DNA of 64,000 bases from contig JAJAPY010000019.1 in the NCBI GenBank assembly GCA_020523885.1, positions 586 to 64,585 on the forward strand, written 5' to 3'. The notes below the pieces were generated by a model. The model was not told where the DNA came from, ran no database searches, and saw only the letters and a program-made list of their open reading frames with translations. A program made the translations under genes and the position numbers. This document shows, one piece after another, positions 4,391 through 51,400 of this stretch (position 1 is its first letter; the number at the start of each line of letters is the position of its first letter). This DNA comes from Candidatus Liberimonas magnetica. Its GTDB lineage: Bacteria; Elusimicrobiota; Endomicrobiia; Endomicrobiales; JAFGIL01.

Positions 4391-4413
4391 ATACTTATTG
4401 ACATGACTCATCT

Positions 4414-4490
4414 GTCATTGTGAGGGAGCATGGCGACCAAAGCAATCTATCGAATTTACACCGAGATTGCTTCGCTTCGCTCGCAATGAC
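4414..4490. repeat. GTCAT-type imperfect inverted repeat
   Basis: gtcattgtgag...aagcaatc (4414-4447) against gattgcttcgcttcgctcgcaatgac (4465-4490). Lies just after the stop of the upstream gene. Confidence 0.6.
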
Positions 4491-4544
4491 GGCTTTATAA
4501 TGTTCTCAAGTCGAACTATGTAAATAGGCAACTAAAATAATAAC

Positions 4545-5708
4545 ATGAAAAAAGAATTGACAAACGAACTTGAGGTCTTAAAAGAAAAAGGGCTTTACAG
4601 AAGCCTAAAGATCATATCTTCATATTCCGAAAAAGAGATTGTAATAGACGGGATAAAATATATGAATTTCTCATCTAACAACTATCTCGGGATGTCCCTG
4701 CGTCCTGAAGTAAAAAAGGCAGCTATAGATGCTATAAACAAGTACGGCTGCGGCGGCACCTCATCGCGGCTTATCTGCGGGACATTAGACGTTCATAAAG
4801 AGCTGGAAGAAAAGCTCGCCAGGCTAAAGTCCAAAGAAGCATCCCTTGTTTTTCCGAGCGGTTTTTCAACTAATCAGGGGATAATAAGCACTCTATTTTC
4901 AAGCGGCGACGCAATAATAATGGACAAACTTAACCATGCTTCCCTGTGGGACGGGGCAAGTTTGAGCAAGGCAAGGATATTCATTTACGAGCACAAAGAT
5001 ATGGAGTCTTTGGAGAAAATTTTAAAACGCGCGCAAAGCTATAAAAAGCGTTTGATAGTTACAGATACTGTTTTTTCTATGGACGGCGACCTTGCACCTC
5101 TTAAAGAAATAGCTTATCTTGCAAAAAAATATAGTGCCGTAACAATGATCGATGAAGCTCATGCCACGGGTGTGTTCGGGGAAAAAGGAAGCGGGCTTGC
5201 AGAAGAATTAGGAGTTGAAAAAGAAATAGATATCGTAATGGGCACGCTTTCAAAAGCCATAGGTTCTTCCGGCGGGTTTGTCTGCGCGGATAAAGAGACA
5301 ATAGAATATCTGATAAATAAAAGCCGCGCATTCATTTATACGACATCGCTTGCGCCTGCAAGCGTTTGCTCTGCTATAAAGGCCCTTGAGATAATAGAAA
5401 GAGAACCGGAAAAAAGAAAGAAACTGCTTGAAAATGCAAAGTATTTAAAAAATAATCTTAATGCCCTGGGTTTTGATACTTTAGAATCAGAAAGCCAGAT
5501 AATACCTCTTTTTACAGGCGAAGTAAGTAAAACCCTGGAGATTTCGTCAAAGCTTATGGATGCCGGGATATATGTCCCTGCCATAAGGCCGCCTACCGTA
5601 GCCGAAGGTAGATGCAGGCTGAGGTTTTCCCTGACAAGCCAGCATAGTAAAGAGGATATAGATAAATTGATTGAAACAATAAAGACAGAGTTAAAATTAA
5701 GAAAATAA
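4545..5708 (+). CDS. bioF: 8-amino-7-oxononanoate synthase
   Basis: PLP-dependent acyltransferase motifs DEAHATGVFG and GTLSKAIGSSGG (Lys), about 387 aa, in biotin-cluster context. Confidence 0.85.
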   Translation: MKKELTNELEVLKEKGLYRSLKIISSYSEKEIVIDGIKYMNFSSNNYLGMSLRPEVKKAAIDAINKYGCGGTSSRLICGTLDVHKELEEKLARLKSKEASLVFPSGFSTNQGIISTLFSSGDAIIMDKLNHASLWDGASLSKARIFIYEHKDMESLEKILKRAQSYKKRLIVTDTVFSMDGDLAPLKEIAYLAKKYSAVTMIDEAHATGVFGEKGSGLAEELGVEKEIDIVMGTLSKAIGSSGGFVCADKETIEYLINKSRAFIYTTSLAPASVCSAIKALEIIEREPEKRKKLLENAKYLKNNLNALGFDTLESESQIIPLFTGEVSKTLEISSKLMDAGIYVPAIRPPTVAEGRCRLRFSLTSQHSKEDIDKLIETIKTELKLRK

Positions 5709-5728
5709 GATATGATGTAAAAAAGGGT

Positions 5729-5757
5729 GTCATTCCCGAAATTAGTAATCGGGAATC
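5729..5757. repeat. GTCAT-type hairpin
   Basis: gtcATTCCCGAaattagtaaTCGGGAATc: 8-bp stem, 9-nt loop, 21 nt after the bioF stop. Confidence 0.6.
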
Positions 5758-5761
5758 TAAA

Positions 5762-5790
5762 AATAAGTAAAGCAAGTAAAGCCAGGCACG
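5762..5790 (+). repeat. shared module M3 (aataagtaaagcaagtaaagcc...)
   Basis: The first 22 nt are identical, and about 27 of 29 overall, to the reverse complement of 32625-32654. A degenerate third copy sits near 31202-31224. Confidence 0.6.
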
Positions 5791-5925
5791 TAAATCCGTA
5801 AATAGAGTTAGTGTAGTTAGAGAAGCCTGACGTGGAAATCAAGCAATGTTTATAAAAATTATTATTATCCTAGCAGTAAACCTATTTTCTATATTTATAC
5901 CTTCAAATAAAAAACTAAATCACTT

Positions 5926-5970
5926 AATTCGAGGGACACAATACATAATTCTGAATAATATTCCAGCAAG
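5926..5970 (+). repeat. 45-bp direct repeat, copy 1 (left flank of Fic cassette)
   Basis: aattcgagggacaCaatacataattctGaataaTattccagcaag matches 7125-7169 at 42 of 45 positions. Confidence 0.85.
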
Positions 5971-6049
5971 TAGAAGGGGAGTTAGGTAATAAGGTATTTG
6001 GAAAAAATGGGAAATGTTTTCAATGGTTACGAAATCGTAAGGAGGTAAA

Positions 6050-7084
6050 ATGAATTCCTTAAAGAACGATAAAATTAAGTTGCCTCTGGGGTCTGTGTGG
6101 CTGATGAATTCCGTTGCCGAGTACAAGGGTAAGCAGGAGCTGTATGATAAACAATCACCGCAGGTTTTGAAATCATTGCTGGAAATGGCACTTATTCAAA
6201 GTGCGGAATCGTCCAACCGTATTGAAGGAATAACTGTTGAAAAGAACCGCCTGAAATCTTTGGTTCTTGGCCACAGCAAGCCTCGGGACCGCTCGGAAAC
6301 AGAGGTTGCCGGGTACAGGAATGCTCTTAACTTGATTCACAAAAAGCATGATAGCCTGCGAATAACACCTGAAACGATACAGGAATTGCACCGGCTCAGC
6401 CATGCCAATGCATAGGATGCAGGGAAATGGAAAGAAAGAGATAATGATATTATTCGCAAACATTCAGACGGCAGAATGGAAGTCATTTTTAAGCCGGTGA
6501 GCGCCGCAAAAACTCCGGAAATGATGGAGCAATTATGCCGTGCGTATGAAAATAGCATAGACCAACTTCGCTATCCCGATATGTATGCCATAGCCTGCCT
6601 GGTTCTTGATTTTTTAAGTATTCATCCGTTTCGGGACGGCAACGGCAGAGTATCACGGCTTTTGACATTGCTTGTGTTGTATCAGCATGGGTATAAAGTC
6701 GGAAAATATATAAGCATTGAACGGATAATAGAACAATCCAAAGAAACATATTATGAAGCTCTTAATAAGAGTTCTAAAAACTGGCATGAGGCAAAACACG
6801 ATATATTCCCCTGGTTTAATTATTTTCTGGGAACTATATTGTCCGCGTATAAGGAATTTGAAGAGCGTGCCGGCAAAATAAAAGCCGCTAAAGGGGCGAA
6901 AACAGGTATTATTGTTAAGGCTGTTGAAAGCCAGCATGGAGAATTTTCTATATCCGACATCGAGAGCGAAAGCCCGGGCGTCAGCCGGATCATGATAAAG
7001 AAAGTCCTGCATCAGTTAAGCAAAGAAAAGAAAATTAAATCCCTTGGAAAGGGACAAGCAGCCAAATGGAAGAGAATGGTATAA
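6050..7084 (+). pseudogene. Fic/DOC-family AMP transferase interrupted by one in-frame TAG
   Basis: ORFs 6050-6415 and 6476-7084 are in the same frame, separated only by TAG at 6413-6415. HPFRDGNGRVSR Fic motif lies downstream, SNRIEG inhibitory-helix motif upstream. Coding sense continues across the stop (DAGKWKERDNDII). Confidence 0.75.
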
Positions 7085-7124
7085 CAGTAGTGTCATTGGT
7101 ATAATGAATGGTATATTATAAGTG

Positions 7125-7169
7125 AATTCGAGGGACAGAATACATAATTCTAAATAAAATTCCAGCAAG
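7125..7169 (+). repeat. 45-bp direct repeat, copy 2 (right flank of Fic cassette)
   Basis: aattcgagggacaGaatacataattctAaataaAattccagcaag, 42 of 45 identical to 5926-5970. Confidence 0.85.
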
Positions 7170-7200
7170 AAAACACGCCTTGTTAAATGAACTAAAAATT

Positions 7201-7566
7201 ATGAATGAATATCCAAAAAAATCAGGATAAAATTGAAAGAACTTGCAGGGTTATCTTAGTCAAAGAGAACTTGATGCAGGGTTGAAATTGTTACATGAAA
7301 AATTTAATGATTGGGAGAAGGGAAAAATTGATTGTTTTGAATTAAATGAATATATACATAAATTCCATAATAGTGTATCACGTGAAATCTGGAAAAAGTA
7401 TAACCAGCCTAAAACTGGTAATTGGGGACATACAACGTTGTTTGATAATACGATATTCAAAAGTATTATATGCCATATTCAATATTGTATTTGGAAAATG
7501 GAACGGGGGGGGAAGACAGTTAAAAAGAAGAAGCAGCCTCTGCGTATACAAATAAGAAGGGTTTAA
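7201..7566 (+). pseudogene. decayed XRE-family HTH gene fused in frame to repeat-derived sequence
   Basis: Frame A gives GYLSQRELDAGLKLLHEKFNDWEKGK, with XRE HTH spacing (LSQxEL-13 aa-WExGK). Helix 1 (IRIKLKELAG) is in another frame after an A7 tract, and ATG 7201 is followed by two in-frame stops. The 3' half overlaps repeat module M2. Confidence 0.4.
7435..7469 (+). repeat. shared module M2, copy 1
   Basis: acgttgtttgataatacgatattCaaaagTattat is identical to 31155-31189 at 33 of 35 positions. Confidence 0.75.
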
Positions 7567-7571
7567 AAGAA

Positions 7572-8210
7572 ATGAATAAAGGAATATTTATCACGGCAAC
7601 CGATACTGAGGTGGGGAAGACTTACATTTCCTGCCTGCTTGCACAGGAGCTTGTAAAAGGGAAATGTAAAGTCGTAGGAATGAAACCTGTTTCTGCGGGG
7701 TCAAGAGATGACGCAAAAAAGCTTATTAAGGCTTCCGGTGTTAAAGAAAAGATAGAAACAGTAAATCCGCTGTTTTTTAAGTACCCGCTTGCCCCGTATG
7801 CCTCGGCGCTTATTGAGAATAGGAAAATAGACCTGTCTTTGGTCTGGAAAAACTATAAAGAACTTTCAACAAAATATGAGTTTATGATAGTTGAAGGTAT
7901 TGGCGGTTTAATGGTGCCGGTCAAAAAGGATTATTATGTGCTTGATCTGATAAAGGGTTTTAAGCTTCCGGTACTTATAGTTGCAAGGCCGGGCCTTGGG
8001 ACTATCAATCATGTTCTTCTGACCCTAGAGGCACTAAAGAAAGCAGGTGTTAAGGTTTTAGGTATAGTAATTAATGACAAAAAAAGACACAGTCTTTCTG
8101 AAAAAACAAATCCAAAAACATTAAAATCTTTGACCGGGCTTCCTGTCCTTGAAGTCCCGCATAATAAAAAAATAGATTTAAAAAGGAACAAATGGCTGAC
8201 AGGGCAATAA
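7572..8210 (+). CDS. bioD: dethiobiotin synthetase
   Basis: N-terminal TDTEVGKT P-loop, VEGIGGLMVP, about 212 aa; overlaps the bioA start. Confidence 0.85.
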   Translation: MNKGIFITATDTEVGKTYISCLLAQELVKGKCKVVGMKPVSAGSRDDAKKLIKASGVKEKIETVNPLFFKYPLAPYASALIENRKIDLSLVWKNYKELSTKYEFMIVEGIGGLMVPVKKDYYVLDLIKGFKLPVLIVARPGLGTINHVLLTLEALKKAGVKVLGIVINDKKRHSLSEKTNPKTLKSLTGLPVLEVPHNKKIDLKRNKWLTGQ

Positions 8211-9643
8211 ACACGCAAAAACTGATAAACGATGACAAAAGGTATATCTGGCACCCGTTTACCCAGATGGCAGACTGGGCCAAAGATGACCCATCTAAAG
8301 CTCTTGTTATAGAACGGGGCAAAGGGAATTATCTTTACGATACTTCCGGCAGAAAATATATAGATGGTGTCTCAAGCCTCTGGGTCACTGTTCACGGGCA
8401 CAATAATACAAATATAAATAATGCTATAAAGGCCCAGTTGTCAAAGATAGCTCATTCCACTTTTCTCGGCCTTACTCATGAACCTGCGATAAAGCTTGGA
8501 AAAGAACTTGTAAAGATCGTTCCTGACGGTTTAACAAGAGTGTTTTATTCAGATAACGGGTCAACGTCAGTTGAGATAGCACTTAAGATGGCATACCAAT
8601 ACTGGAAACACAAAGGAGACAAAAACCGGAATAGTTTTTTATCGCTAAAAAATGCCTATCACGGGGACACTATCGGCTCGGTCTCGGTAGGCGGTACAGA
8701 CCTTTTCCATAAGGCATTTAAAAACCTGCTTTTTAAAACATACTTTGCGCCTTCGCCGTACTGCTTTAGATGCGAACACCGAGTTCAGAGTTCAGAGTTC
8801 GGAGTTCGGAGTAAAAACCTTAAACATCATTGTAAATTAATGGGTTGTAGCGGGCAATGCATAGCGGGCGTTGAAAGCATACTGAAAAAACACGGCAAGG
8901 AAATTGCAGGGGGTATTGTTGAGCCGATGATACAGGGGGCTTCGGGCATGCTTACTATGCCGCCGGGGTATATGAAAGAATTTGAAAAAATTATCAAAAA
9001 ATATGGGATACTTCTTATCTGTGATGAGGTAGCTACTGGTTTTGGAAGGACAGGCAGGATGTTTGCCTGCGAGCATGAAAATATCAAGCCTGACCTCATG
9101 TGCGTGGCTAAAGGCATAACCGGAGGGTATTTGCCGCTTGCAGCGACATTTGCCACGGAAAAAATATATAAAGCTTTTCTTGGCAGGTATGAAGAATTTA
9201 AAACGTTTTTTCACGGCCATACTTATACGGCAAACCCTCTGGGCTGCGCCGCAGCTCTTGCGAACTTGGAGATATTTAAGGATGATAAGGTCCTAAACAA
9301 AATACAGGATAAGATAAAGTGTTTAGAAAAAGAACTGCAGAATTTAAAATATCTGGAATTTGTAGGTGATATAAGGCATATCGGCCTCATGGCAGGGATC
9401 GAGCTTATAAAAAGTATAGATATAGGTAAAGGTAGAAATAAAGGGAAAAATAGAATAGAGGATTTTGAAGCTAGAGATAAAATAGGCGCAAAAGTATGCG
9501 CCCAATGCAGGAATTATGGGGTATTGCTAAGGCCTTTAGGGAATGTTATCGTGCTTATGCCGCCTTTAAGCATAACAAATAACGAAATAAAAAAGATTGT
9601 CGAAAGTATAAAAAACTCTGTATTGAAAATATGCAAAAAATAG
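8192..9643 (+). CDS. bioA: adenosylmethionine-8-amino-7-oxononanoate aminotransferase
   Basis: WHPFTQM, DEVATGFGRTG and KGITGGYLP (PLP Lys) are class-III aminotransferase motifs of the BioA type. Confidence 0.9.
   Translation: MADRAINTQKLINDDKRYIWHPFTQMADWAKDDPSKALVIERGKGNYLYDTSGRKYIDGVSSLWVTVHGHNNTNINNAIKAQLSKIAHSTFLGLTHEPAIKLGKELVKIVPDGLTRVFYSDNGSTSVEIALKMAYQYWKHKGDKNRNSFLSLKNAYHGDTIGSVSVGGTDLFHKAFKNLLFKTYFAPSPYCFRCEHRVQSSEFGVRSKNLKHHCKLMGCSGQCIAGVESILKKHGKEIAGGIVEPMIQGASGMLTMPPGYMKEFEKIIKKYGILLICDEVATGFGRTGRMFACEHENIKPDLMCVAKGITGGYLPLAATFATEKIYKAFLGRYEEFKTFFHGHTYTANPLGCAAALANLEIFKDDKVLNKIQDKIKCLEKELQNLKYLEFVGDIRHIGLMAGIELIKSIDIGKGRNKGKNRIEDFEARDKIGAKVCAQCRNYGVLLRPLGNVIVLMPPLSITNNEIKKIVESIKNSVLKICKK
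8781..8812 (+). repeat. heptamer tandem repeat (GAGTTCR x 4.5) inside bioA
   Basis: gagttca gagttca gagttcg gagttcg gagt, encoding RVQSSEFGVRS between the CFRC and CKLMGCSGQC cysteine segments. Confidence 0.8.
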
Positions 9644-12421: not shown

Positions 12422-13969
12422 ATGAAAAAAAGATTGCTGCTAGTCTTTTTTGGATTATTCTTTAGTTTGATATTGCTTGAAGCAGGCCTGCGCCTGGGCG
12501 GTTTTATATATAATTCCAGGCAGGAGATAAGGAACAGAGAAGAGCTGAAGAAGAAGAAACAGGTTTACAGAATATTGTGTTTAGGTGAATCAACAACGCA
12601 GGGAGAATATCCGAAATATCTTGAAGAAGTATTAAATAACAGGGATATAGGGATAAGGTTCAGTGTGATAGACAAGGGCAGGCAAGCGACTACAACGACG
12701 TTTATATTAGCAAAGCTTGAAGAAGATCTTGATAAATATAAACCGGATATGGTCATAACCATGATTGGAGTAAATGATGACCGGACAGATATGGTATACG
12801 AATATGAAAATGGTGGAATAAAAAGCCTTATTAAATCAATTAAAATATATAAACTAGCAAGGTTGCTAGAACAGCATATAAAGAGAAGGATAGAAGAATT
12901 AAGTACGATTAAAGGAAACATAAAGCAGAATAGAGTAGAAGAAATCAATGAATTAAGCAGTAAGAAACTATTAGAAGCAAAAGGAAAAGAAAGTGGAAAC
13001 AAGATAGTCGGAACCCATGCGGATAATGAAGTAAAGTATGCGCAAGAATGGAGTTTTTGCAGTGAAAAAGAAGAGCCGATACTTAAGAAAACAATAGAAA
13101 GTGATCCCAATAACAAAAATAAATATATAGAATTAGTTAAATTTTATATAGAATCAGGAAAGTATGGAAAAGCTATGAGTGTATCTAAAAAGCTGATAGC
13201 TTTAAATCCAATAGATAAATTGGGGTATTTTTATTTAATGAGAATAAAACAATATGTAAAAGAAGAATCAAAGTATAGAAAAGCAATACAGATAAACCCA
13301 AAAGATCAAGAAGCGAATTTAAAGTTGGGTCATTTTTATGAAAGAATAGGTAGTTCTAATGAGGCAGAGAAAATTTATGAAAAAGCAATAAAATCAGGTG
13401 TAAATAACGAATCAATATATTCTCGTTTAGCTAATTGTTATAGGCGTGAAAATAAGTATGAAGAAGCAATGGCTATGTATAAGAAAGCAATAGAGCTAAA
13501 TCCTGAAAAAATAATGTTATTTTATCTGCTTGAAGAGATTTACAGGAAGCAAGGAAAAGGAAAAGAAGCAGAAGAAATCATGAACAAAATAGTTGATAAA
13601 GGGAAAGGGCCATTAAGAATAAAGTATTTGAGGCCTAATGAGGGGTATGAATCAGAATATTTTGGAAGGCCTGTAATATATAACTACAAAAAGTTAAGTG
13701 GAGTATTAAAAAAGAGGGGAATAAGATATATATGCATGCAATACCCTCTAAGGAAGATAGGAATATTGAGAAATATATTTTATAAAGATAAAGATATAGT
13801 ATTCGTTGACAATGAGAAGATATTCACGGATGTCGTTCAGAAAGAAGGGTATGATGAATATTTTAGAGATATATTTGCAGGAGATTTCGGCCATTGTACG
13901 ATAAAGGGCAATAAACTTTTAGCCAAGAACATAGCAGATACGATAATAAAAGAAGTATTTCATAAATAA
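12422..13969 (+). CDS. membrane-anchored SGNH/GDSL-like hydrolase split by an internal TPR array (paralog 1 of 4)
   Basis: N-terminal TM helix, CLGESTTQ (block I Ser), MIGVNDD (block III), about 5 degenerate TPRs, then C-terminal YICMQYP...VFVDNE...GDFGHCTIKGNKLLA (block V His). Confidence 0.65.
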   Translation: MKKRLLLVFFGLFFSLILLEAGLRLGGFIYNSRQEIRNREELKKKKQVYRILCLGESTTQGEYPKYLEEVLNNRDIGIRFSVIDKGRQATTTTFILAKLEEDLDKYKPDMVITMIGVNDDRTDMVYEYENGGIKSLIKSIKIYKLARLLEQHIKRRIEELSTIKGNIKQNRVEEINELSSKKLLEAKGKESGNKIVGTHADNEVKYAQEWSFCSEKEEPILKKTIESDPNNKNKYIELVKFYIESGKYGKAMSVSKKLIALNPIDKLGYFYLMRIKQYVKEESKYRKAIQINPKDQEANLKLGHFYERIGSSNEAEKIYEKAIKSGVNNESIYSRLANCYRRENKYEEAMAMYKKAIELNPEKIMLFYLLEEIYRKQGKGKEAEEIMNKIVDKGKGPLRIKYLRPNEGYESEYFGRPVIYNYKKLSGVLKKRGIRYICMQYPLRKIGILRNIFYKDKDIVFVDNEKIFTDVVQKEGYDEYFRDIFAGDFGHCTIKGNKLLAKNIADTIIKEVFHK

Positions 13970-13972
13970 GCC

Positions 13973-15499
13973 ATGAAAAAAAAGGTTGTATTAATATTTT
14001 TAGGAGTAATATTTAGCTTGGTATTGATTGAAGCAGGCCTGCGCCTGGGCGGTTTTATATATAATTCCAGGCAGGAAATAAGAAACAGGGAAGAGCTGAA
14101 GAAGAAACAGGTTTGCAGAATATTGTGTTTAGGTGAATCAACAACGCAAAAGCAGTATCCGAAATATCTTGAAGAAGAATTAAATAACAGGGATATAGGG
14201 ATTAAGTTCAGCGTGATAGATAAAGGAAGGGCAGGCACTAATACGAACTTTATAGCAGCTAAGCTTGAAGAAGACCTGGATCGGTATAAACCGGATATGA
14301 TAATAACGATGATGGGTATAAATGATGGCAGGGATGATATAGTATTTGAATATGAAAATGGCGGAAGAAAAAGCCTTATAAGATCAATTAAAATATATAA
14401 GCTGGCAAGGTTATTAAAGCTGCATATAAACAGCAAGCTGGCAGAGGTAAATAAAATTAACGATAGCATAGAAAAAACAGATTACAATAATGAAATAATG
14501 TGTGTAAAGAAAGGGCATTATTACATGGACAGGGGAGAATATGAGAAGGCAGAAGAGATGTTTAGAAGAGCACTGGAGTTAAATCCAAAGTCAGTATGGA
14601 ATTATACAATATTAGGAAGCTTGTACAGGGATTTAAATAGAAATGAAGAAGCAGAAAAGATGTACCAAGGAGCGATAAATATAAACCCAAAATATGATCA
14701 GGGGTATTTAGGGTTAGGGGATTGTTTTTTTAAAAAAGGAAAGTATAAAGACGCAGAAGCTATGTATAAGGAAGCACTGGAGTTAAATCCAAAGTCAGTA
14801 TGGAATTACAAAGCCTTAGGAGACTTTTACGAGGATTTAAATAGAAATGAAGAAGCAGAAAAGATATATCAAAGGGCGATACAGATAAACCCTGATAGTG
14901 ATAGGGTATATTTCTGGTTAGGAGATTATTTTTTAGAAAGAGGAAGGTACGAAGAAGCAGAAAAAATGTATAAAAAGTCGATACAAATAAATCCAAAAAA
15001 TGAAATAACATATAAAAAGTTAAGTGACTCTTATAGGAAGCAAAAGAAATATTCAGAATCAATGAAAATATTTGATCAAGGCGTAAAAGTTGAAAAAGTT
15101 ATTCAAGGCAGAGATGATGTTGTAGATGATGAAAAAAAGTTAGTATTAAAAAAACTAGGCAAAGAAAAACCATTCAAATCAAAATATTTCGGGGCGGCTG
15201 CGATATATAACTATAAAAAGTTAAGAAAGATCGTGAAAAAAAGAGGGATAAAGTATGTTTGTGTTCAATACCCAACGCGTAAGTTGGATGATTTAAAATC
15301 AATATTTAAGGAAGATGAAGATATAGTATTTGTGGATAATGAAAAGACATTTAAGGAAGCAGTTAAAGAAGAAGGGTATAATGAATATTTCATAGATAGA
15401 ATGGCTGAAAATTTCGGCCATTGCACGTTAAAAGGCAATAAGCTCTTAGCCAGGAATATAGCTGATGCGATAATAAAGGAGGTTTTTAACAGGCAATAA
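13973..15499 (+). CDS. SGNH-like/TPR paralog 2 of 4
   Basis: Same N- and C-terminal modules as paralog 1 (CLGESTTQ, MMGINDG, ENFGHCTLKGNKLLA) with about 5 TPR units between. Starts 3 nt after paralog 1 ends. Confidence 0.65.
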   Translation: MKKKVVLIFLGVIFSLVLIEAGLRLGGFIYNSRQEIRNREELKKKQVCRILCLGESTTQKQYPKYLEEELNNRDIGIKFSVIDKGRAGTNTNFIAAKLEEDLDRYKPDMIITMMGINDGRDDIVFEYENGGRKSLIRSIKIYKLARLLKLHINSKLAEVNKINDSIEKTDYNNEIMCVKKGHYYMDRGEYEKAEEMFRRALELNPKSVWNYTILGSLYRDLNRNEEAEKMYQGAININPKYDQGYLGLGDCFFKKGKYKDAEAMYKEALELNPKSVWNYKALGDFYEDLNRNEEAEKIYQRAIQINPDSDRVYFWLGDYFLERGRYEEAEKMYKKSIQINPKNEITYKKLSDSYRKQKKYSESMKIFDQGVKVEKVIQGRDDVVDDEKKLVLKKLGKEKPFKSKYFGAAAIYNYKKLRKIVKKRGIKYVCVQYPTRKLDDLKSIFKEDEDIVFVDNEKTFKEAVKEEGYNEYFIDRMAENFGHCTLKGNKLLARNIADAIIKEVFNRQ

Positions 15500-15503
15500 G
15501 AAA

Positions 15504-17543
15504 ATGAGATTAAAAAAGACAGGATTAATATTATTAGGGGTATTGGCAAGTTTGGTATTGCTTGAAACGGGCTTGCGCATAAGCGGGTTTATATACACTT
15601 CAAAACAGGAGCTAAGGAACAAGGAAGAGCTGAATAAGAAAGGGGTATACAGGATACTATGTTTAGGGGAATCGATGACACGAGAGCAGTATCCGAAATA
15701 TCTGGAGGATGAGCTAAATAGCAGAGGTATAGGAATAAAGTTCAGCGTGATAGATAAAGGCAAAGGCGGGGTATTTACAAATTTCATATTAGCAAGTTTA
15801 GAAAACAATTTAGATAAATACAGGCCTGATATGGTAGTAACAATGATGGGGGCAATGGATGGCAGCAGCGATGTGGTATATGAATATGATAAGTCAGGAA
15901 GTTATTATAGGAAGCTGAAGGTATATAAACTGTTTAAGTTAATAAAACTGCACATGAAAAGTAAGCTTGGAGAGATGGAAAAAGCTATAGGAAGGGTGAC
16001 AAAGAAATCCGGTGAAGGTATAAAAGAGTTGAGCTGGGGTAAGTTGTTAAAATGGAAAATTACCGGAAGAGGCGATAATTATAAAGAAACTGATGGCGAA
16101 GCAAAAAAGCCTTCAGAAGTTAGTGTAAGTTATGTGATAAAAGGGCACTTTTACAGGGATAGAAAAGAATATAAAGAAGCAGAAGAGATGTATAAGAAGG
16201 CAATAGAAGCAAGCCCGGATTATGACCAGGGGTATTTGGGGTTAGGGGATTGTTATAGGAACACGGGCAGATATGAAGAAGCAGAACAGGTATATAAGAA
16301 AGCGCTGAAGATAAATCCAAAGTCAGAATGGAATTATGCAGTATTAGGAGATTTATTCAGGGGTTTAAAAAGGCATGAAGAAGCAGAACAGATGTATAAG
16401 AAGTCAGTAGAAGTAAACCCTAATTATGATCATGGATATTTAGGGCTGGGAGATAATTATAGGGATGAGCTAAAATATGAAGAAGCCGGGGAGATGTACA
16501 ATAAAGCTATAGGACTAAATCCGAAAAATGACCAGGGCTATATGGGGTTAGGGGATTGTTATAGGAATGAGCGAAAGTATAAAGAAGCCGAGGAAATGTA
16601 TAGCAAAGCGATGGAGCTGAATCCGAAGAACGAGAGCACATATATAAATTTAGGCAGTTGTTACAGCCGGGAAGGAAAGTATAAGGAAGCTGAGAAGGTT
16701 TTTAAAAAAGCGATGAAACTGAACCCGAAAAATGCTGATACGTATATTAGCCTAGGAGATAGCTATAGAGATGGGCAGAAATATAAAAAAGCAGATGAGA
16801 TGTACAGGAAAGCGGTTGAGCTAGATCCAAAGAACGAAAGCGCATATGGGAGTATCGGGGATCGTTATATGGATGAGCGAAAGTATAAGGAAGCTGAAGA
16901 AGTTTTTAAAAAGATTTTAGAAATAGTTCCTAAAAGCGAATGGGCCTACAGCAATTTAGCCACTATTTACTGGAATCAACGTAAGTTTAAAGAAACCGAA
17001 GAAGTATATAAAAAAATGTTAGAAATAAACCCGGCACAGAGGGATGCTTTCTACGGCCTTTCTGTCCTTTATGAAGCACAAAATAAATATAAACAGGCAG
17101 AGAAGATGTTAAAAGAAGGTGCGAAACCGGAAGAAGATGATAAAAGATCAGATGAAAACATAAATGTGACAATTGATGACGATATGGGGATGAAGCATCA
17201 GGTAATAAAAGAAAAAAGCAGGTCGTTATATTTTGGTTCAGGAACAGTATATAATTATAAAGCGCTGAGGATGATATTAAAGAAAAGAGGGGTAACGTAT
17301 GTATGCGTTCAATACCCTAGGCGGAAAGTGGAAGATATGAAAGATATATTTAATTATGACAAAGATATGATATATGTAGACAATGAAAAGACATTTAAGG
17401 AAGCAATGAAGAAAGAGGGGTATGATAAATATTTCAAGGACAGGACTTGTGGCGAATTTGGCCATTGCACGGTAAAAGGCAATAAGCTCCTGGCCAAGAA
17501 CATAGCCGATGCGATAATGAAGGAAGTATTTAAGAGGCAATAA
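15504..17543 (+). CDS. SGNH-like/TPR paralog 3 of 4 (longest, most diverged flanks)
   Basis: CLGESMTRE, MMGAMDG, about 11 TPR units with consensus YKEAEEMYKKAxELNPKN, C-terminal GEFGHCTVKGNKLLA. Confidence 0.65.
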   Translation: MRLKKTGLILLGVLASLVLLETGLRISGFIYTSKQELRNKEELNKKGVYRILCLGESMTREQYPKYLEDELNSRGIGIKFSVIDKGKGGVFTNFILASLENNLDKYRPDMVVTMMGAMDGSSDVVYEYDKSGSYYRKLKVYKLFKLIKLHMKSKLGEMEKAIGRVTKKSGEGIKELSWGKLLKWKITGRGDNYKETDGEAKKPSEVSVSYVIKGHFYRDRKEYKEAEEMYKKAIEASPDYDQGYLGLGDCYRNTGRYEEAEQVYKKALKINPKSEWNYAVLGDLFRGLKRHEEAEQMYKKSVEVNPNYDHGYLGLGDNYRDELKYEEAGEMYNKAIGLNPKNDQGYMGLGDCYRNERKYKEAEEMYSKAMELNPKNESTYINLGSCYSREGKYKEAEKVFKKAMKLNPKNADTYISLGDSYRDGQKYKKADEMYRKAVELDPKNESAYGSIGDRYMDERKYKEAEEVFKKILEIVPKSEWAYSNLATIYWNQRKFKETEEVYKKMLEINPAQRDAFYGLSVLYEAQNKYKQAEKMLKEGAKPEEDDKRSDENINVTIDDDMGMKHQVIKEKSRSLYFGSGTVYNYKALRMILKKRGVTYVCVQYPRRKVEDMKDIFNYDKDMIYVDNEKTFKEAMKKEGYDKYFKDRTCGEFGHCTVKGNKLLAKNIADAIMKEVFKRQ

Positions 17544-17548
17544 AAGAC

Positions 17549-19486
17549 TTGAGATTAAAAAAAGCAGGTTTAATATTACTCGGAATATTGGCAAGCATGA
17601 TATTGCTTGAAATAGGAATGCGCCTGGGCGGTTTTATATATAATTCCAGGCAGGAGATAAGGAACAGAGAGGAACTGAAGAAGAAACAGGTTTACAGAAT
17701 ATTGTGTTTAGGTGAATCAACAACGCAAGAGCAGTATCCGAAATATCTTGAAGAAGTATTAAATAACAGGGATATAGGGATAAAATTCAGCGTGATAGAT
17801 AAAGGAAGATTCGGCACTAATACGAACTTTATAGCAGCTAAGCTTGAAGAAGACTTGGATAAATATAGACCCGATATGGTAATAACGATGATGGGTGTAA
17901 ACGATGCCAGGGACGATATAATATTTGAATATGCAGATGACGGAAGAAGGAGCCTTATTAAATCAATTAAAATATATAAACTGGCAAGGTTGTTAAGGCT
18001 GCATATAAAGAGTAAGATAGAAGAATTAAAAATGGGAAAAGGAAGGATAAAGCAGAATATAATAGAAATAGTAAAAGAATTAAATAGTAAAAAGCGAATA
18101 GAAAGAGCAGGAAAGGAAGGACGAAATAATATAACAAAGACATCTTCGGATAATGGAGTAATATATGCTGAGAAAGGCGATGATTACAGAAATAAGCAAG
18201 AATATGAGAAAGCAGAAGAGATGTACAAAAGAGCGATAGAGCTAAACCCCGATTACGATCAAGAGTATTTTGGATTAGGGCATTGTTACGAGGTTGCAGG
18301 AAGGTATGAAGAAGCTGAAGAGATGTATGAGAAAGCACTAAAACTAAACCCAAAATCACTCTGGAATAATAAAGACCTGGGATTTTTTTATTTAAATTTA
18401 AAGAGGTTTGAAGAAGCAGAAGAAATGTTTAAAAAGGCGATAGAGATATATCCTAAGAATGCTCAAGTATATTCTGATTTAGGGAATTGCTATAAAGTGG
18501 AAGGAAAATATGAAGAGGCGGAGAAAGAATATAAAAAAGCGGAAACAATGTTTCAGAAAGTTCTATTAGCAAATCCTAAAGAAGAAGAGGCATGTTTTGG
18601 ATTAGGGGATTGTTACATGGACACAGCTAGGTACAAAGAAGCAGAAGAGATATATAAAAGAGCGATACAGCTGAACCTTAATTTTTATAAGGGGTATGCA
18701 AGGCTGGGGGAATGTTACTATCACATGCGCAAATACAAAAAATCAGAAGAGATGTATAAAAGAGCGATAGTTTTGAACCCTGATTATTATAAGTCGTATT
18801 TAGGGCTGGGGGAATGTTTCGATACCACGCAGAAATGCAAAGAAGCAGAAAAGATATATAAAAGAGCAATAGAAGTTGACTCTAAAAAATATCAGGGGTA
18901 TTTCTACCTGGGAAATTGTTATAAGGATCAAGGAAGATATGAAGAAGCAAAGGAAGAATTAAAAAAATCCATAGAAATAAACCCAAATAATAAAATGACA
19001 CATGTAAGGCTATACGAAACTTATAAGGCACAAAAGAAGTATAAGGAATCAATGGAAATACTTAATCGAATCATGGCGCTTGAAAAAAATAGCCAAGGCA
19101 GATATAAAGTTACAGATGATAAGATAAATATAGTTATAAAAAAACTGAACAATGAAGGGCAGATCAATTCACAGTATTTCGGAGTAGCTACTATATACAA
19201 CTATAAAAGGTTAAGGAAGATTTTAAAGAAAAGAGGGGTAAAATACGTTTGTGTTCAATATCCTATGCGGGAAGTGGATGATTTAAAATTAATATTTAAG
19301 GAAGAAAAAGACATAATATTTGTTGACAATAAAAGAGTATTTAAAGAAGCAATTAACAAACAAGGGTATAATGAATATTTCAGGGATAGAATTGATGAAA
19401 AATTCGGCCATTGCACGATAAAAGGCAATAAGCTCTTAGCCGAAAACATAGCTGATACAATAATTAGGGAAGTGCTTAATAAGTAA
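17549..19486 (+). CDS. SGNH-like/TPR paralog 4 of 4 (TTG start)
   Basis: Its 5' module is nearly identical at nucleotide level to paralog 1. CLGESTTQE, MMGVNDA, about 9-10 TPR units, C-terminal EKFGHCTIKGNKLLA. Confidence 0.65.
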   Translation: MRLKKAGLILLGILASMILLEIGMRLGGFIYNSRQEIRNREELKKKQVYRILCLGESTTQEQYPKYLEEVLNNRDIGIKFSVIDKGRFGTNTNFIAAKLEEDLDKYRPDMVITMMGVNDARDDIIFEYADDGRRSLIKSIKIYKLARLLRLHIKSKIEELKMGKGRIKQNIIEIVKELNSKKRIERAGKEGRNNITKTSSDNGVIYAEKGDDYRNKQEYEKAEEMYKRAIELNPDYDQEYFGLGHCYEVAGRYEEAEEMYEKALKLNPKSLWNNKDLGFFYLNLKRFEEAEEMFKKAIEIYPKNAQVYSDLGNCYKVEGKYEEAEKEYKKAETMFQKVLLANPKEEEACFGLGDCYMDTARYKEAEEIYKRAIQLNLNFYKGYARLGECYYHMRKYKKSEEMYKRAIVLNPDYYKSYLGLGECFDTTQKCKEAEKIYKRAIEVDSKKYQGYFYLGNCYKDQGRYEEAKEELKKSIEINPNNKMTHVRLYETYKAQKKYKESMEILNRIMALEKNSQGRYKVTDDKINIVIKKLNNEGQINSQYFGVATIYNYKRLRKILKKRGVKYVCVQYPMREVDDLKLIFKEEKDIIFVDNKRVFKEAINKQGYNEYFRDRIDEKFGHCTIKGNKLLAENIADTIIREVLNK

Positions 19487-31154: not shown

Positions 31155-31189
31155 ACGTTGTTTGATAATACGATATTGAAAAGGATTAT
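31155..31189 (+). repeat. shared module M2, copy 2
   Basis: acgttgtttgataatacgatattGaaaagGattat, 33 of 35 identical to 7435-7469; starts 15 nt after the STAND stop. Confidence 0.75.
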
Positions 31190-31578: not shown

Positions 31579-31607
31579 TTGACATCTTACCATGTTTATG
31601 GTATATT
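31579..31607 (+). promoter_or_regulatory. sigma70-like promoter of the MNT-HEPN operon
   Basis: TTGACA (31579-31584), exact 17-bp spacer, TATATT (31602-31607). Confidence 0.6.
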
Positions 31608-31625
31608 TATACCATAAACATGGTA
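31588..31625. promoter_or_regulatory. perfect 18+2+18 bp palindrome (candidate operator) across the -10 element
   Basis: taccatgtttatggtata tt tataccataaacatggta. Each arm itself contains ACCAT-N4-ATGGT. Confidence 0.65.
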
Positions 31626-31644
31626 TAAATAGGATGTAGGGAAA

Positions 31645-32193
31645 ATGATATTTAATCTTCGTTCTAAAATCACCAGGAAAATACTTAATTTTTTCTTTCT
31701 AAACGATAAATCCAGGGTTTACGTTAATGAAATAGCCCGCCAGATCGAAGAAGAACCAAAGAATGTGTATAGGATATTAATCCGCCTTGAGGACTCAGGA
31801 ATACTAACCAGTGAGTTTTCGGGGCGTGAAAGGTATTTTACGGCAAACTTAAAAAGCAGCCTCTTAAAAGAATATAAAACCATTTTCATGAAAACTTCGG
31901 GTATTGAATCAATGCTAAAAAAAGCAGTAACGAAAAGACCTGAAATAAAAGAAGCTTTTATTTATGGGTCCTATGCAAGCGGGAAATATAAGCCGGGAAG
32001 CGATATTGACCTCTTGCTGGTAGGCAATCACAAAAGCATGGATGCTCAAAAAATGATTTTTGACCTGCAAAAAACGTCAGGCAGTGAGATAAATGTCATT
32101 AATATTACCCCTGAAAACTTTAATAATAAAAAAACGGAAAAGGACCAGTTGATATCTTCTATTTTTTCCGGGAAAGTAATAAAACTATTATGA
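31645..32193 (+). CDS. winged-HTH fused to a minimal nucleotidyltransferase (MNT-type antitoxin-like)
   Basis: N-terminal wHTH-like segment VYVNEIARQIEEEPKNVYRILIRLEDSGIL, then NTase signature GSYASGKYKPGSDIDLLLVG. The stop overlaps the next ATG (ATGA). Confidence 0.7.
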   Translation: MIFNLRSKITRKILNFFFLNDKSRVYVNEIARQIEEEPKNVYRILIRLEDSGILTSEFSGRERYFTANLKSSLLKEYKTIFMKTSGIESMLKKAVTKRPEIKEAFIYGSYASGKYKPGSDIDLLLVGNHKSMDAQKMIFDLQKTSGSEINVINITPENFNNKKTEKDQLISSIFSGKVIKLL

Positions 32194-32576
32194 AATTTGA
32201 CAAAAATCATTTTATTGAGCAGAAATTTACACCTAATGAGCTTGAAAAGATACGGAAATCTGCCAAACGAAACATGGAGTTAGCAGGCTCAAGCAGTGCC
32301 CCTGAAATAATTTTTCATTTCTCATACATGGCTCTTATAAAAATTGGTATTTACTGTATAGCCAAAGAAGGATACAGGGTTAAAAGTCGGCCTGGCCACC
32401 ATGTAAAAATAATTGAAGCTCTTAGCCAAATCTTGGGATCAAAAGATATTTTGATTGCCGGAGATAAAATGCGCAAAGACAGGAATATCGATCTTTATAG
32501 CGGGGATGCCGTAATTGACGTGAAAGAAGCCGAAGAGTATTATGAAATAGTTAAGCAGTTTGTTAATACAATCTAA
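32190..32576 (+). CDS. HEPN-domain protein (toxin-like partner of MNT)
   Basis: 128 aa, predicted helical, MRKDRNIDLYSGD matches my recollection of the HEPN R-N-x-x-x-Y/H region. 4-nt overlap with the NTase gene. Confidence 0.55.
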   Translation: MKFDKNHFIEQKFTPNELEKIRKSAKRNMELAGSSSAPEIIFHFSYMALIKIGIYCIAKEGYRVKSRPGHHVKIIEALSQILGSKDILIAGDKMRKDRNIDLYSGDAVIDVKEAEEYYEIVKQFVNTI

Positions 32577-32624
32577 AGTTGTCGTTACCCGTCTAAAATC
32601 AGTGCGGAAATAGCGGCCTAATTG

Positions 32625-32654
32625 CGTGTCAGGCTTTACTTGCTTTACTTATTC
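32625..32654 (-). repeat. shared module M3, inverted copy
   Basis: The reverse complement gaataagtaaagcaagtaaagcctgacacg matches 5762-5790. Confidence 0.6.
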
Positions 32655-32923: not shown

Positions 32924-32956
32924 ACAAAATATTAAAAGGAATTCGGGGGACACACA

Positions 32957-48447: not shown

Positions 48448-51400
48448 ATGTGCCTTTTTATTAAAAATATGCTTACAATTAAAAAATTGACAGTTATAAG
48501 TTTTTTTATATGCATGGCTTTGGTTAGCTCTGTTTACGGCGGTTATACCATTACGACTATAGCGGGGAATATATGGGGTTATTCGGGTTATTCAGGAGAC
48601 GGGGGCAACGCGGCTTTGGCTCAACTCAATGCCCCCTGGGGTATCGGGGTCGATGCTTCAGGGAATGTTTACATAGCCGACACCTATAATAACCGGATAA
48701 GAAAAGTAACCCCTTCGGGCAAAATAACAACTATAGCTGGTACTGGGACAACCGGGTATTCGGGAGACGGAGGAAGTGCTCTTGATGCTCAGCTTAATGC
48801 TCCCTGGGGCATAGGGGTTGATGCTTCGGGAAATGTTTTTTTCGCATCTTTTTTTTATGACAGGATTAGAAAAATAACTGTTTCAGGCATAATATCGTCT
48901 TTTGCCGGTACCGGGACAGCAGGTTATGCCGGGGACGGGGCCGGAGCAGCTTCGGCACAGCTTAATGTTCCCTGCGGGGTAGCAGTTGACGTTTCAGGCA
49001 ATGTCTATATCGCTGACAGCGGCAATCAGCGGATAAGAAAAATAGATACTTCAGGCATAATAACAACTATAGCCGGTACCGGGAGCGCAGGTTATTCTGG
49101 AGACGGGGGCAGCGCGACTTCAGCCCAGCTCAACGGCCCCCGCGGGGTAGCAGTTGACGTTTCAGGGAATGTCTACTTCACGGACTATGCCAATCAGCGA
49201 GTTAGAAAAATTAACACTTTCGGTATAATAACAACTATAGCCGGTACCGGGAGCGCAGGTTACTCAGGAGACGGAGGCAGGGCCGTTTTGGCCCAGCTTA
49301 ATGCTCCTGAAGGAATAGGGGTTGACGCTTCAGCGAATGTCTATATAGCCGACTATGGCAACCACAGGATAAGGAAGGTGACCGCCGGAGGCATAATAAT
49401 GACTATAGCCGGCACCGGGACTGCAGGTTATTCAGGAGACGGAGGCAACGCCGCTTTGGCCCAGCTTAACAGTCCCCGAGGGGTAGCGGTCGACGCCTCC
49501 GGCAACGTCTACGTGGCTGACAACGGCAATCACCGGATAAGAAAAGTTTTTATTAAGCAGACCGGGTTTGTTTCTGGTAAAGTGACCAAGCAAGACGGAG
49601 TAACTGCGGTTTCAGGAGCGCTTATAGAAGCTGTGAGATCCGGGGTTGTTAAATCAAGCGCAACAAGCAATGCGAGCGGTAACTACTCAATAAAAGTAGA
49701 AACCGGGACTTGCGATGTAAGGGCTTCATTATCAGTATTTCAGACGCAGACAAAAGATGGATACACTGTTGCCAACGGTTCGACAATAACAGTGAATTTT
49801 TCTCTTGTTCAGAAAGGGATTGTTTCCGGCAGGGTAACAAAGTCTGGCGGCGGGGCAGCGATCTCTGGGGCGCTTATAGAGCTCATACAGTCCAAGGCAA
49901 CAAAGTCAACTTTTCTTACTGATAGAAGCGGCAATTATCTGATAAGAGTAGGAACAGGTACTTATGACATAAAAGCTTCTTTGATAGGTTATAAACCTCA
50001 GACGAAAACTGCTTATTATGTAAAGAATGGTTCAACAGTTACTATCAATCTATCCTTAACCGAAATCGCCTCGGCTCAAGCAGGGATGTTTTCCTACACC
50101 ATTACAACCATAGCAGGGACCGGGGCAGCAGGTTATGCCGGGGACGGAGGCAGCGCCGTTTTTGCCCAGCTCAATGTTCCCTGCGGGATAGCGGTTGACG
50201 GTTTAGGAAATCTCTATATAGCTGATTACGGCAATCATCGAATAAGGAAAGTGAACGCTTTAGGCATAATAACGACCATAGCCGGGAATGGGACCGCAGG
50301 TTTTTCAGGTGACGGAGGCAGCGCGCTCCTGGCTCAACTTAACAGCCCCCGCGGAGTGGCGGTTGACGATTCAGGCAATGTCTATATAGCTGACTATGAT
50401 AATCAGCGAATAAGGAAAGTAACCGTTTCAGGCATAATATCAACTATAGCCGGGAACGGGACAGCGGGTTTTTCAGGAGACGGAGAAAGCGCCATTTTAG
50501 CTAAATTTAACGGCCCCCGCGGAGTCGCGGTTGATGTTTCAGGCAATGTTTATGTAGCTGATTACGGAAATAACCGGATAAGGAAGATAAACAGTTCAGG
50601 CATAATAACAACAATAACAGGAATCGGGACTACGGGCTATGCAGGCGACGGAGGCAGCGCCGCTTCAGCCCAGCTAAACGGCCCCCGCGGGGTAGCGGTT
50701 GATGCTGCAGGTAATGTCTATATTGCTGACAACGATAATCACGGGATAAGGAAAGTAAGCATCCTGGGCATAATAACAACTATAGCTGGGACAGGAGTTT
50801 CAGGTTATGCAGGAGACGGAGAAAGTGCCAATTTAGCCCAGATCGATTCTCCTTACGGAGTAGCGGTCGATGTTTTAGGCAATGTCTATATCGCTGACCT
50901 AATCAATAATGTAATAAGGAAAGTAAGCACTTTAGGCATAATAACGACTATAGCAGGGACCGGGACCTGGGGTTATTCGGGAGACGGTGGCCCTGCCACC
51001 GCGGCCCAGCTTGATTCCCCTTTTGGGGTAGCTGTTGATGCTTCAGGCAATATTTATATCGCTGACAACGGCAATCATCGAATAAGGAAAGTGAACGCTT
51101 CAGGCATAATAACAACTATATCCGGAACCGGGACCGCGGGTTTTTCAGGAGACGGGGGCAGTGCCACCTCAGCTCAACTTGCAAGCCCCCGTGGTGTGGC
51201 GGTTGATATTTCAGGCAATGTCTATATAGCTGACTCAGGTAATCAGCGAATAAGGAAAATAAATGCTTCAGGCATAATAACAACTATAGCCGGGACCGGG
51301 ACCGCAGATTATTCAAGGGACGGAGTAATCGCTATTTTGGCCCAGCTTAATAGCCCTAGCGGAGCAGCGGTTGATGCTTCAGGTAATGTCTATATAGCTG

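Follow-up and report, generated by a model that had tools for sequence, protein, structure and literature searches.

The described systems closest to the element studied here are Fic proteins that also bind DNA. SoFic of Shewanella oneidensis, a single-gene anti-phage entry in PADLOC, is reported to bind its own promoter as a dimer, in the 100 bp upstream of its gene (bioRxiv 10.64898/2026.07.09.737422), and has a 47-aa antitoxin, AS1 (PMC12249575). CccR of Yersinia pseudotuberculosis, a Fic toxin and transcriptional auto-repressor, joins a Fic domain to a C-terminal DNA-binding domain, echoes the class II inhibitory motif as S59ARIEG, and represses itself through 10-bp boxes, AGATAATCAT-N26-ATGATAATCT, at its own -35/-10 (PMC9755527). 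Here we describe a Fic gene with a C-terminal winged helix in a 64,000-nucleotide stretch of Candidatus Liberimonas magnetica (hereafter the window), where it lies between the biotin genes bioF and bioD. Our verdict is that the locus is an ordinary islet insertion carrying a pseudogene of a SoFic/CccR-like gene. Compared by sequence alone, the gene product shares with SoFic the inhibitory motif, the HPFx(D/E)GNGR motif and the C-terminal winged helix, but it is distant in sequence (E ~2e-5 to the SoFic structure in the PDB), and the gene has boxes at its 3' end and a premature stop. CccR differs in having two inverted boxes, 26 bp apart and upstream, where the unit carrying our gene has three direct boxes, usually downstream; CccR is also an effector secreted by the type VI secretion system, and nothing similar was found at the window locus. 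What the locus adds to these systems is a portable Fic–winged-helix unit, a covarying putative 3' operator and a recurrent footprint of flanking repeats.

The first-pass annotation had remarked that bioF and bioD, normally adjacent, stand 1.86 kb apart in the window, and comparison with three Elusimicrobiota relatives bears this out. The stop codon of bioF (4545–5708; 8-amino-7-oxononanoate synthase; NCBIfam TIGR00858 at 469 bits, cut-off 426; Pfam Aminotran_1_2) ends at 5708 and the ATG of bioD (7572–8210; dethiobiotin synthase; TIGR00347 at 187 bits, cut-off 83) begins at 7572, leaving 1,863 bp (5709–7571) between them. bioA follows (8192–9643; TIGR00508 at 557 bits, cut-off 405; 78% identical to relatives), its start overlapping the 3' end of bioD; L015 and L018 share this overlap, and L020 has an 8-nt gap. 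Labels of the form L0xx denote loci or contigs fetched for comparison, and P0xxx homologous proteins. We reached empty sites through BioD homologues and contig look-ups, and used L015/L016/L017, L018 and L020/L021, with BioD identities of 68%, 68% and 57%, respectively. Their gene order, bioB-SDR-KAS-PMT2/TPR-bioF-bioD-bioA-pgi-proB (KAS, ketoacyl synthase), equals the layout of open reading frames (ORFs) in the window, and the entire 1,863-bp segment is missing from them: bioF and bioD are 9 nt apart in L015/L016/L017, overlap by 4 nt in L018 (-4 nt) and are 1 nt apart in L020/L021. Such tight spacing in three syntenic relatives identifies the segment as an insertion into the bioF–bioD junction. 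A search for empty sites in related genomes had been set beforehand as the check, and it returned tight junctions with zero copies of the 45-bp repeat described below; these junctions are too short to hold even one copy, so the repeat is not a duplicated ancestral bioF/bioD junction. Outside the Fic gene, GC content in the insert is 0.28–0.35, against 0.39–0.41 in the bio genes. No transposase, integrase or att-type site was found in the insert, and its flanks are syntenic housekeeping genes. A BioF scan of species-representative genomes returned distant relatives only (at most 45% identity) and no close one. All parts of the insert are co-oriented with the operon, as first noted from the ORFs, and every feature of the insert and of the biotin genes given here is on the plus strand. 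The locus thus shows a translationally coupled biosynthetic operon tolerating a 1.9-kb foreign insert.

An independent Logan assembly of SRR16235686 reproduces the region in two contigs, covering 4462–5756 and 5728–8811, each 100% identical to the window and each carrying the same details where they fall within it: the premature stop, the indels and the G8 tract discussed below. These features are therefore not one assembler's quirk. The two contigs overlap by 29 nt (5728–5756), ending exactly at a hairpin just after bioF (5732–5756; 8-bp stem and 9-nt loop, -9.8 kcal/mol, z -1.97), which has no U tail and was not called by a terminator scan. The right junction and the entire insert are contiguous in this second assembly, and the left junction is covered by the 29-nt overlap together with the NCBI contig.

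The gene at the centre of the insert (6050–7084, 344 codons) is a class II Fic gene with a C-terminal winged helix, identified by Pfam, homologues, the PADLOC SoFic model and PDB 8UQU. Its Fic domain scores 54 bits against PF02661 (cut-off 24; residues 105–210). The active-site motif HxFx(D/E)GNGRxxR is intact (HPFRDGNGR; HPFRDGNGRVSR in translation), as is the inhibitory motif (S/T)xxxE(G/N), which appears as SNRIEG in the N-terminal part of the same polypeptide. A match of 1.2e-37 to the PADLOC SoFic model stands beside 47 bits against the NCBIfam SoFic equivalog, whose cut-off is 550. The nearest solved structure, 8UQU, aligns over residues 19–342 (3e-97); it is a 366-aa 'Fido domain-containing protein', and a literature search on it found no paper. 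A protein search detected ~8,000 homologues, and the best 120 of them are 74–85% identical, 343–353 aa long, and come from Omnitrophota, Chlamydiota and many metagenome bins. Because homologues at 75–85% identity, all of them 343–345 aa long, occur in Omnitrophota, Chlamydiota and other lineages with diverse neighbourhoods, the gene is, judged from these comparisons, of foreign origin. As to its carrier, phage carriage was considered and rejected, since viral contigs held no Fic relative and no match to the repeat; plasmid homologues are at most 45% identical.

The Fic frame is interrupted by exactly one in-frame stop, a TAG at codon 122 (6413–6415), which differs by a single G>A change (TGG>TAG) from the Trp codon of the closest homologue, P0001/L003 (HANAWDAGKW). 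We ruled out TAG as a sense or recoded codon, as it ends 5 of the 41 long ORFs in the window. Compared with L003, the gene has pN 0.08 and pS 0.72, with synonymous sites saturated, and dN/dS of ~0.03. So low a ratio, combined with a single stop, indicates strong purifying selection for nearly all of the gene's history and a recent death; the alignments show a gene recently inactivated by one TGG>TAG mutation. The cassette had at first been described as decayed. For Fic, this is right in that the gene is a pseudogene and overstated otherwise, given one nonsense codon, motifs that are all intact and a dN/dS of ~0.03.

DNA similarity between the window and L003–L006 runs from ~6031 to 7118–7122, that is, from 19 nt 5' of the ATG to ~35 nt past the stop, and delimits a conserved unit (6031–7118) made of a short leader with a ribosome-binding site, the Fic ORF and three boxes. 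The sharpest example comes from two Hainich groundwater contigs, L003 and L029, which are 97.9% identical over exactly 1,110 bp (-29 to +46) and unrelated on either side. Many other pairs have the same limits at 82–87% identity, with ends at 0 to -39 and at +37 to +48; the right limit is fixed immediately past box 3, and the left one ranges from 0 to -39. Such alignments show the Fic gene to be part of a discrete, portable unit of ~1.1 kb. Over 43 non-redundant Fic loci the neighbours are very diverse, including restriction enzymes, glycosyltransferases, carbamoyl-phosphate synthase and alanine racemase, and they are mostly co-oriented with Fic (30 of 38 downstream, 25 of 34 upstream). We considered a type I restriction locus as the unit's usual home, but this holds for a minority only (L003, L070, L033). 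In L070 (3963–4003 and 5076–5114) the unit sits after hsdR codon 11: the copy 5' of Fic makes up a short leader ORF (reading back from KSITKSEVERYY*), the stop of which, TAA, shares bases with the start codon of Fic (TAATG), and an intact hsdR start (MAKSITESEVE) follows the boxes. hsdR starts lie just downstream in L003 and L033, too. The subfamily thus emerges as very widespread (the ~8,000 proteins detected), unusually conserved across phyla and travelling as a ~1.1-kb unit with what are very probably its own binding sites.

The three boxes of the window are GAATGGTATA at 7074, CATTGGTATA at 7094 and GAATGGTATA at 7106 (7074–7115), each 10–12 nt long and spaced 20 and 12 nt from start to start, the first overlapping the Fic stop codon. 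Nearly all homologue loci have three direct boxes at a spacing of ~21 and 12 nt, the first usually overlapping the last codons. Comparing boxes and recognition helices across 49 homologues, we distinguished three sequence classes: class A (AATGGTATA), to which the window boxes belong, occurs with a recognition helix and wing of the form VSR[V/I]MIKKVL...GKGQ; class B (ATAGGGTAATA) with VSRDMIK[I/V][I/V]F...GKGK; and class C (AACGTGATAAT) with VSRPMIRVVLE...GTGR. Among these, the class-C box ACGTGATAAT is similar to ATGATAATCT of CccR. Box class tracks the recognition helix whether the boxes lie upstream or downstream of Fic. In a second group of loci the boxes are upstream and form TTTACA-17-TATAyT, with box 3 giving the -10 element. 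The recombinant L054 is particularly informative: residues 1–295 are 95% identical to a class-B protein, residues 296–344 are 52% identical to that protein and 83% to class C, and its boxes are class C. Boxes also persist beyond the stop where the protein ends earlier, which rules out coding constraint as the sole reason for their conservation, and they are conserved between the window and L003 despite the saturation of synonymous sites. Since box class covaries with the recognition helix and L054 swapped both together, the boxes are very probably the operator and promoter of the Fic protein itself. In the window, a promoter scan places an outward-facing promoter-like site, GTGTCA-16-TATATT with an upstream TG, across them (7090–7117). 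In a limited literature search, we found no published description of such a 3' outward-facing operator/promoter layout. With recognition helix and boxes adjacent on the DNA and exchanged together, the family is a clean case in nature in which to study how a toxin/regulator switches specificity. Were the outward-promoter reading true, these cassettes would rewire the expression of downstream genes, restriction enzymes included. Elsewhere in the window, ATGGTATA, the same 8-mer as in the class-A box, occurs three times at 31580–31630, including a perfect palindrome, TTATGGTATATTTATACCATAA; the site lies upstream of a nucleotidyltransferase/HEPN-like pair (31645–32576; PADLOC PDC-M05A/B, MntA-like), and the identity may be a coincidence.

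The Fic unit lies between two direct repeats, at 5926–5970 and 7125–7169, that are identical at 42 of 45 positions and extendable to 52 nt at 88% (5919–5970 and 7118–7169); the copies are thus 7–12% diverged, with a period of 1,199 bp. Exactly two copies occur in the 64 kb, and none of 100 shuffles gave a match. Copy 1 is unstructured and is followed by 60 bp of filler (5971–6030) without similarity to anything fetched; copy 2 abuts box 3 and contains a further promoter-like site from the promoter scan, GGGACA-17-TAAAAT (7132–7160). The same geometry occurs in L003. Degenerate boxes in the filler were also considered, but their spacing is wrong. The claim that similarity stops at the ends of the 45-bp repeats holds, in that no further flanking similarity was found. 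The repeats had also been said to bracket a Fic and helix-turn-helix (HTH) cassette; they bracket the Fic unit, and with a period of 1,199 bp do not enclose the whole 1.86-kb insert. An outer pair, 5987–6006 and 7480–7499 (16 of 20 positions), we took as chance in AT-rich DNA. We likewise rejected the idea that copy 2 came with the orphan gene described below as that gene's own 5' region, as it has no similarity to the upstream regions of that gene's homologues.

To place these repeats in context, we compared the 300–500 bp upstream and downstream of Fic at each of the 43 non-redundant loci, with a direct match score of at least 18 as threshold and 302 same-length windows from the same contigs as controls. 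Flanking direct repeats occur at 11 of 43 Fic loci and in 2 of 302 control windows (Fisher p 2e-9), and inverted-orientation controls are flat, at background. Seven cases are solid (L003, L038, the window, L053, L031, L079 and L070); at L043 and L067 the matches are box sets themselves, at L033/L074 the match is a multi-copy hairpin element, and L071 and L076 are weak. The repeats differ in sequence at every locus, range from 27 to >150 bp, and lie at the hsdR 5' end (L003, L070), at the 3' end of a TPR gene (L038) or in intergenic DNA elsewhere. Across the repeat loci, the unit ends have no shared terminal sequence, no inverted repeat and no linked recombinase. In coding repeats, 16 synonymous and 7 non-synonymous codon differences separate the copies (P 2.5e-5); this excess indicates that each copy evolved under selection as a genuine gene end in a lineage of its own before the two were juxtaposed. 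The codon differences point to recombination with one homologous anchor and one illegitimate joint, not to a fresh duplication that then decayed. Homology-facilitated illegitimate recombination, which combines one homologous anchor with one illegitimate joint, is known from natural transformation. It predicts foreign DNA set between two diverged host alleles, as in L003, L038 and, more weakly, L070; the perfect repeats of L031 and L053 it does not predict. Recurrent flanking duplications of this kind are a concrete trace, open to testing, of the route by which defence genes without a recombinase pass from genome to genome.

Taken as a whole, the locus is best explained as a patchwork islet that contains a portable Fic unit with operator boxes and arrived by host recombination, and we hold this explanation to be reasonably probable. 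Several findings weigh against it. No relative with more than 68% BioD identity was found, and the order of events inside the islet is not reconstructable. The covariation of box and helix is partly confounded with subfamily phylogeny, which leaves L054 as the main evidence separating the two. Among the Fic loci, 74% have no flanking repeats, and the flanking repeat of L033 and L074 is a multi-copy hairpin element, a different phenomenon. One-sided homologous recombination does not explain the perfect repeats of L031 (30/30) and L053 (39/40), which may need true target duplication. The window repeats are themselves non-coding, so that the allele test is inapplicable there. The SRR16235686 assembly graph also branches at 5728–5756, with a repeat elsewhere or a population variant as candidate causes.

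One alternative takes the 45-bp repeats for members of a dispersed intergenic family, similar to repetitive extragenic palindromic (REP) sequences or miniature inverted-repeat transposable elements, with Fic landing between two copies or being captured by recombination. The window does contain other dispersed modules, M1 and M2, with second copies beside a toxin–antitoxin islet at 31.1–32.7 kb; the 13-nt start of the repeat, AATTCGGGGGACA, recurs at 32940; and the L033/L074 repeat is multi-copy and hairpin-forming. That element is 55–59 nt long and present in two to three copies around Fic (L033, 3886–3944, 5183–5241 and 5327–5381; L074, 3880–3934 and 5101–5155), looks REP-like, contains a hairpin (GGGACAGCGAC...GTCGCTGACCC), and has AATTAGGGACA in common with the beginning of the window repeat. 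The window repeats, by comparison, are unstructured, unlike REP elements, are limited to two full copies in 64 kb that exactly flank the unit, with copy 2 abutting box 3, and have zero copies in ~60 kb of syntenic DNA of relatives. We therefore rate a dispersed family as rather unlikely.

Another possibility is that the Fic unit is a true mobile element whose dedicated mechanism makes long target-site duplications of variable length, the 45-bp repeats being its footprint; box-dependent recombination of a circular intermediate and RNA-mediated, target-primed insertion of the Fic transcript are candidates for such a mechanism. Locus-specific flanking repeats of 27–60+ bp are strongly enriched, and some are perfect and abut the unit (L031, L053, L038 and L079). 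The unit always stops right behind box 3 and starts anywhere from 0 to -39, boxes are found on either side of Fic or on both, an arrangement resembling circular permutation, and the unit starts at about the transcript start expected from an upstream-box promoter. Set against this, the unit has no linked gene for a recombinase, reverse transcriptase or transposase, and terminal inverted repeats and a shared junction sequence are missing. Repeat length and filler amount vary widely, coding repeats are diverged alleles and not fresh duplications, and 74% of loci have no repeats at all. Homologous replacement between resident cassettes would explain the sharp boundaries at 98% identity equally well. 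A dedicated mechanism appears unlikely on this evidence. Its boldest form, in which the Fic–winged-helix unit is a self-contained mobile regulatory cassette spreading by some undescribed dedicated mechanism that duplicates 27–60+ bp, with the 3' boxes as an outward, Fic-controlled promoter over hsdR in several genomes and over bioD and bioA in the window, seems to us quite unlikely.

Known classes of mobile DNA also fit poorly. A transposon or insertion sequence was rejected because the insert has no transposase, the unit ends carry no inverted repeats, and the repeats range from 27 to >150 bp; an integrative element with att sites, because there is no integrase and the repeat sequence differs at every locus. 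As a promoterless single-gene unit that has a conserved 3' element, recurs in many settings and usually points the same way as the genes beside it, the Fic unit does resemble integron cassettes and minimal mobile elements. Unlike these, it has no attC-type inverted repeat, integrase or cassette array; its 3' element consists of three direct boxes, and the repeats and 3' region do not fold. The flanks of the Fic unit are also not a conserved gene pair, and its 3' element appears to behave as a protein-specific operator. Finally, that the segment is ancestral and was lost by three relatives, or is an assembly chimera, is very improbable: although only three relative lineages are available, none above 68% BioD identity, and the Logan graph branches at 5728–5756, relatives at two depths all have tight, coupled bioF–bioD junctions, the content is typical of transferred DNA with close homologues in unrelated phyla, and the second assembly joins the insert to its right junction and reaches the left by the 29-nt overlap and the NCBI contig.

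Under the favoured explanation of a patchwork islet brought in by host recombination, horizontally acquired DNA entered the bioF–bioD junction, at which relatives keep the two genes translationally coupled. At the core of the islet is an essentially promoterless ~1.1-kb unit comprising a leader, a class II gene of the Fic AMP-transferase type and three boxes straddling the stop. The boxes would be the cognate sites to which the winged helix of Fic binds, and a promoter of sigma-70-like or extended -10 type would overlap them; placed upstream, as in other genomes, they would auto-repress Fic, and in the layout of the window they would face outward to the downstream genes. Arrival by host recombination may have combined an illegitimate joint on one side with, possibly, homologous pairing on the opposite side, leaving 45–52 bp of local sequence at both ends, a by-product that also surrounds Fic at about one-quarter of other loci. 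The orphan gene would have been already present or have co-arrived, and has since decayed; it is long dead and Fic newly so. Transcription of bioD and bioA would then depend on operon read-through and/or on sites in the insert at 7090–7117, 7132–7160 and 7442–7469, the three promoter-like sites predicted within 5709–7571; no plus-strand terminator was predicted there. With Fic dead, the box promoter would be unrepressed. Translational coupling is also conceivable through a 107-codon ORF ending 5 nt before bioD. DNA binding, promoter activity, the recombination route and bioD/bioA expression are all inferred here.

Downstream of repeat copy 2, the insert holds the remnant of an orphan gene of ~112 aa (7195–7404), covering its first ~60% at 83% nucleotide identity to L022 (112 codons). 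The remnant has lost 1 nt at ~7212 and gained 1 nt at ~7261, two compensating changes, and homology ends at 7404. The first-pass annotation had called it a frameshifted XRE-type HTH remnant. A frameshifted remnant it is; the XRE assignment does not stand, in view of the lack of any HTH profile and a four-helix, non-HTH model. The family (P0122–P0131), small and uncharacterised, has no match in Pfam, NCBIfam or PADLOC even at E<=10, including to any HTH family. In a confident AlphaFold2 model (m396a17ba0f96; pLDDT 93), a short and a C-terminal helix accompany two long ones; the closest PDB fold, that of the cyanobacterial fluorescence recovery protein 4JDX, is a weak match (TM 0.63–0.68, prob 0.97, E 0.5), and no HTH protein is listed. 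We considered this gene as a regular Fic partner or an AS1-like SoFic antitoxin and rejected both roles, as its homologues occur in varied, unrelated contexts without Fic, beside AEP-TOTE/DEAD helicase, DUF3024 and PRiA4_ORF3 genes. Joined to unrelated 3' sequence, the remnant's in-frame portion makes up the 107-codon ORF (7243–7566; 107 aa from the gene caller), which ends 5 nt before the bioD ATG.

The remaining parts of the insert are small. Module M2, already noted from the sequence, is present at 7435–7469 and matches a second copy at 31155–31189 in 33 of 35 positions; it contains a promoter-like site, TTGATA-16-TATTAT (7442–7469), that has 10 of 12 matches and ties the best score in a 4-kb scan. 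An M1-like dispersed module of 32 nt (5762–5793) has an inverted copy at 32622–32653 (91%). The second copies of M2 and M1 surround the toxin–antitoxin islet, and the 13-nt match to the repeat start lies at 32940–32952; the same small modules thus accompany two separate islets. Apart from M1 and M2, neither 5709–5925 nor 7405–7571 matches anything fetched, and a candidate DUF2157-like gene fragment at 7458–7501 was set aside as unconvincing, being a match of 14 aa only. The G8 tract is also where it had been reported, at 7505–7512, inside the 107-codon ORF and 60 nt before bioD. Although it is the sole G/C run of at least 7 in the 64 kb, a rough hand estimate expects ~0.3 such runs; this is near chance, and we give the tract no weight and consider its significance doubtful. 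Read from the sequence, G7 or G9 would shift the stop of the 107-codon ORF 20–50 nt upstream. Rfam gave no matches at the gathering threshold in the whole window and none in 5600–7700 at E<=1, and a tRNA search of the window found none.

Other parts of the operon and of the window also carry repeats or irregular spacers. The 154-bp gap between the PMT2/TPR gene and bioF (4391–4544) contains a palindromic element at 4405–4500 (GTCATTGTGAGGGAGC...GCTCGCAATGAC) that folds strongly (-37.5 kcal/mol, z -5.1). The corresponding genes overlap by 4 nt in L015 and are separated by a 158-bp gap of unrelated sequence in L020; the element may be a further small insertion that the operon has taken up. bioA itself contains a tandem repeat of 7 nt, GAGTTCA x 4.6, at 8781–8812 in a variable BioA loop that relatives also have, and Logan contig L002 ends within it, at 8811. 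Because the unit length is not a multiple of 3, slippage would frameshift bioA. Further along the window, a 1,167-aa ORF (48448–51951) consists of a 168-nt (56-aa) repeat in ~20 tandem copies, and TPR-like repeats of 102 nt form several tandem arrays at 12422–19486 and 62029–63411.

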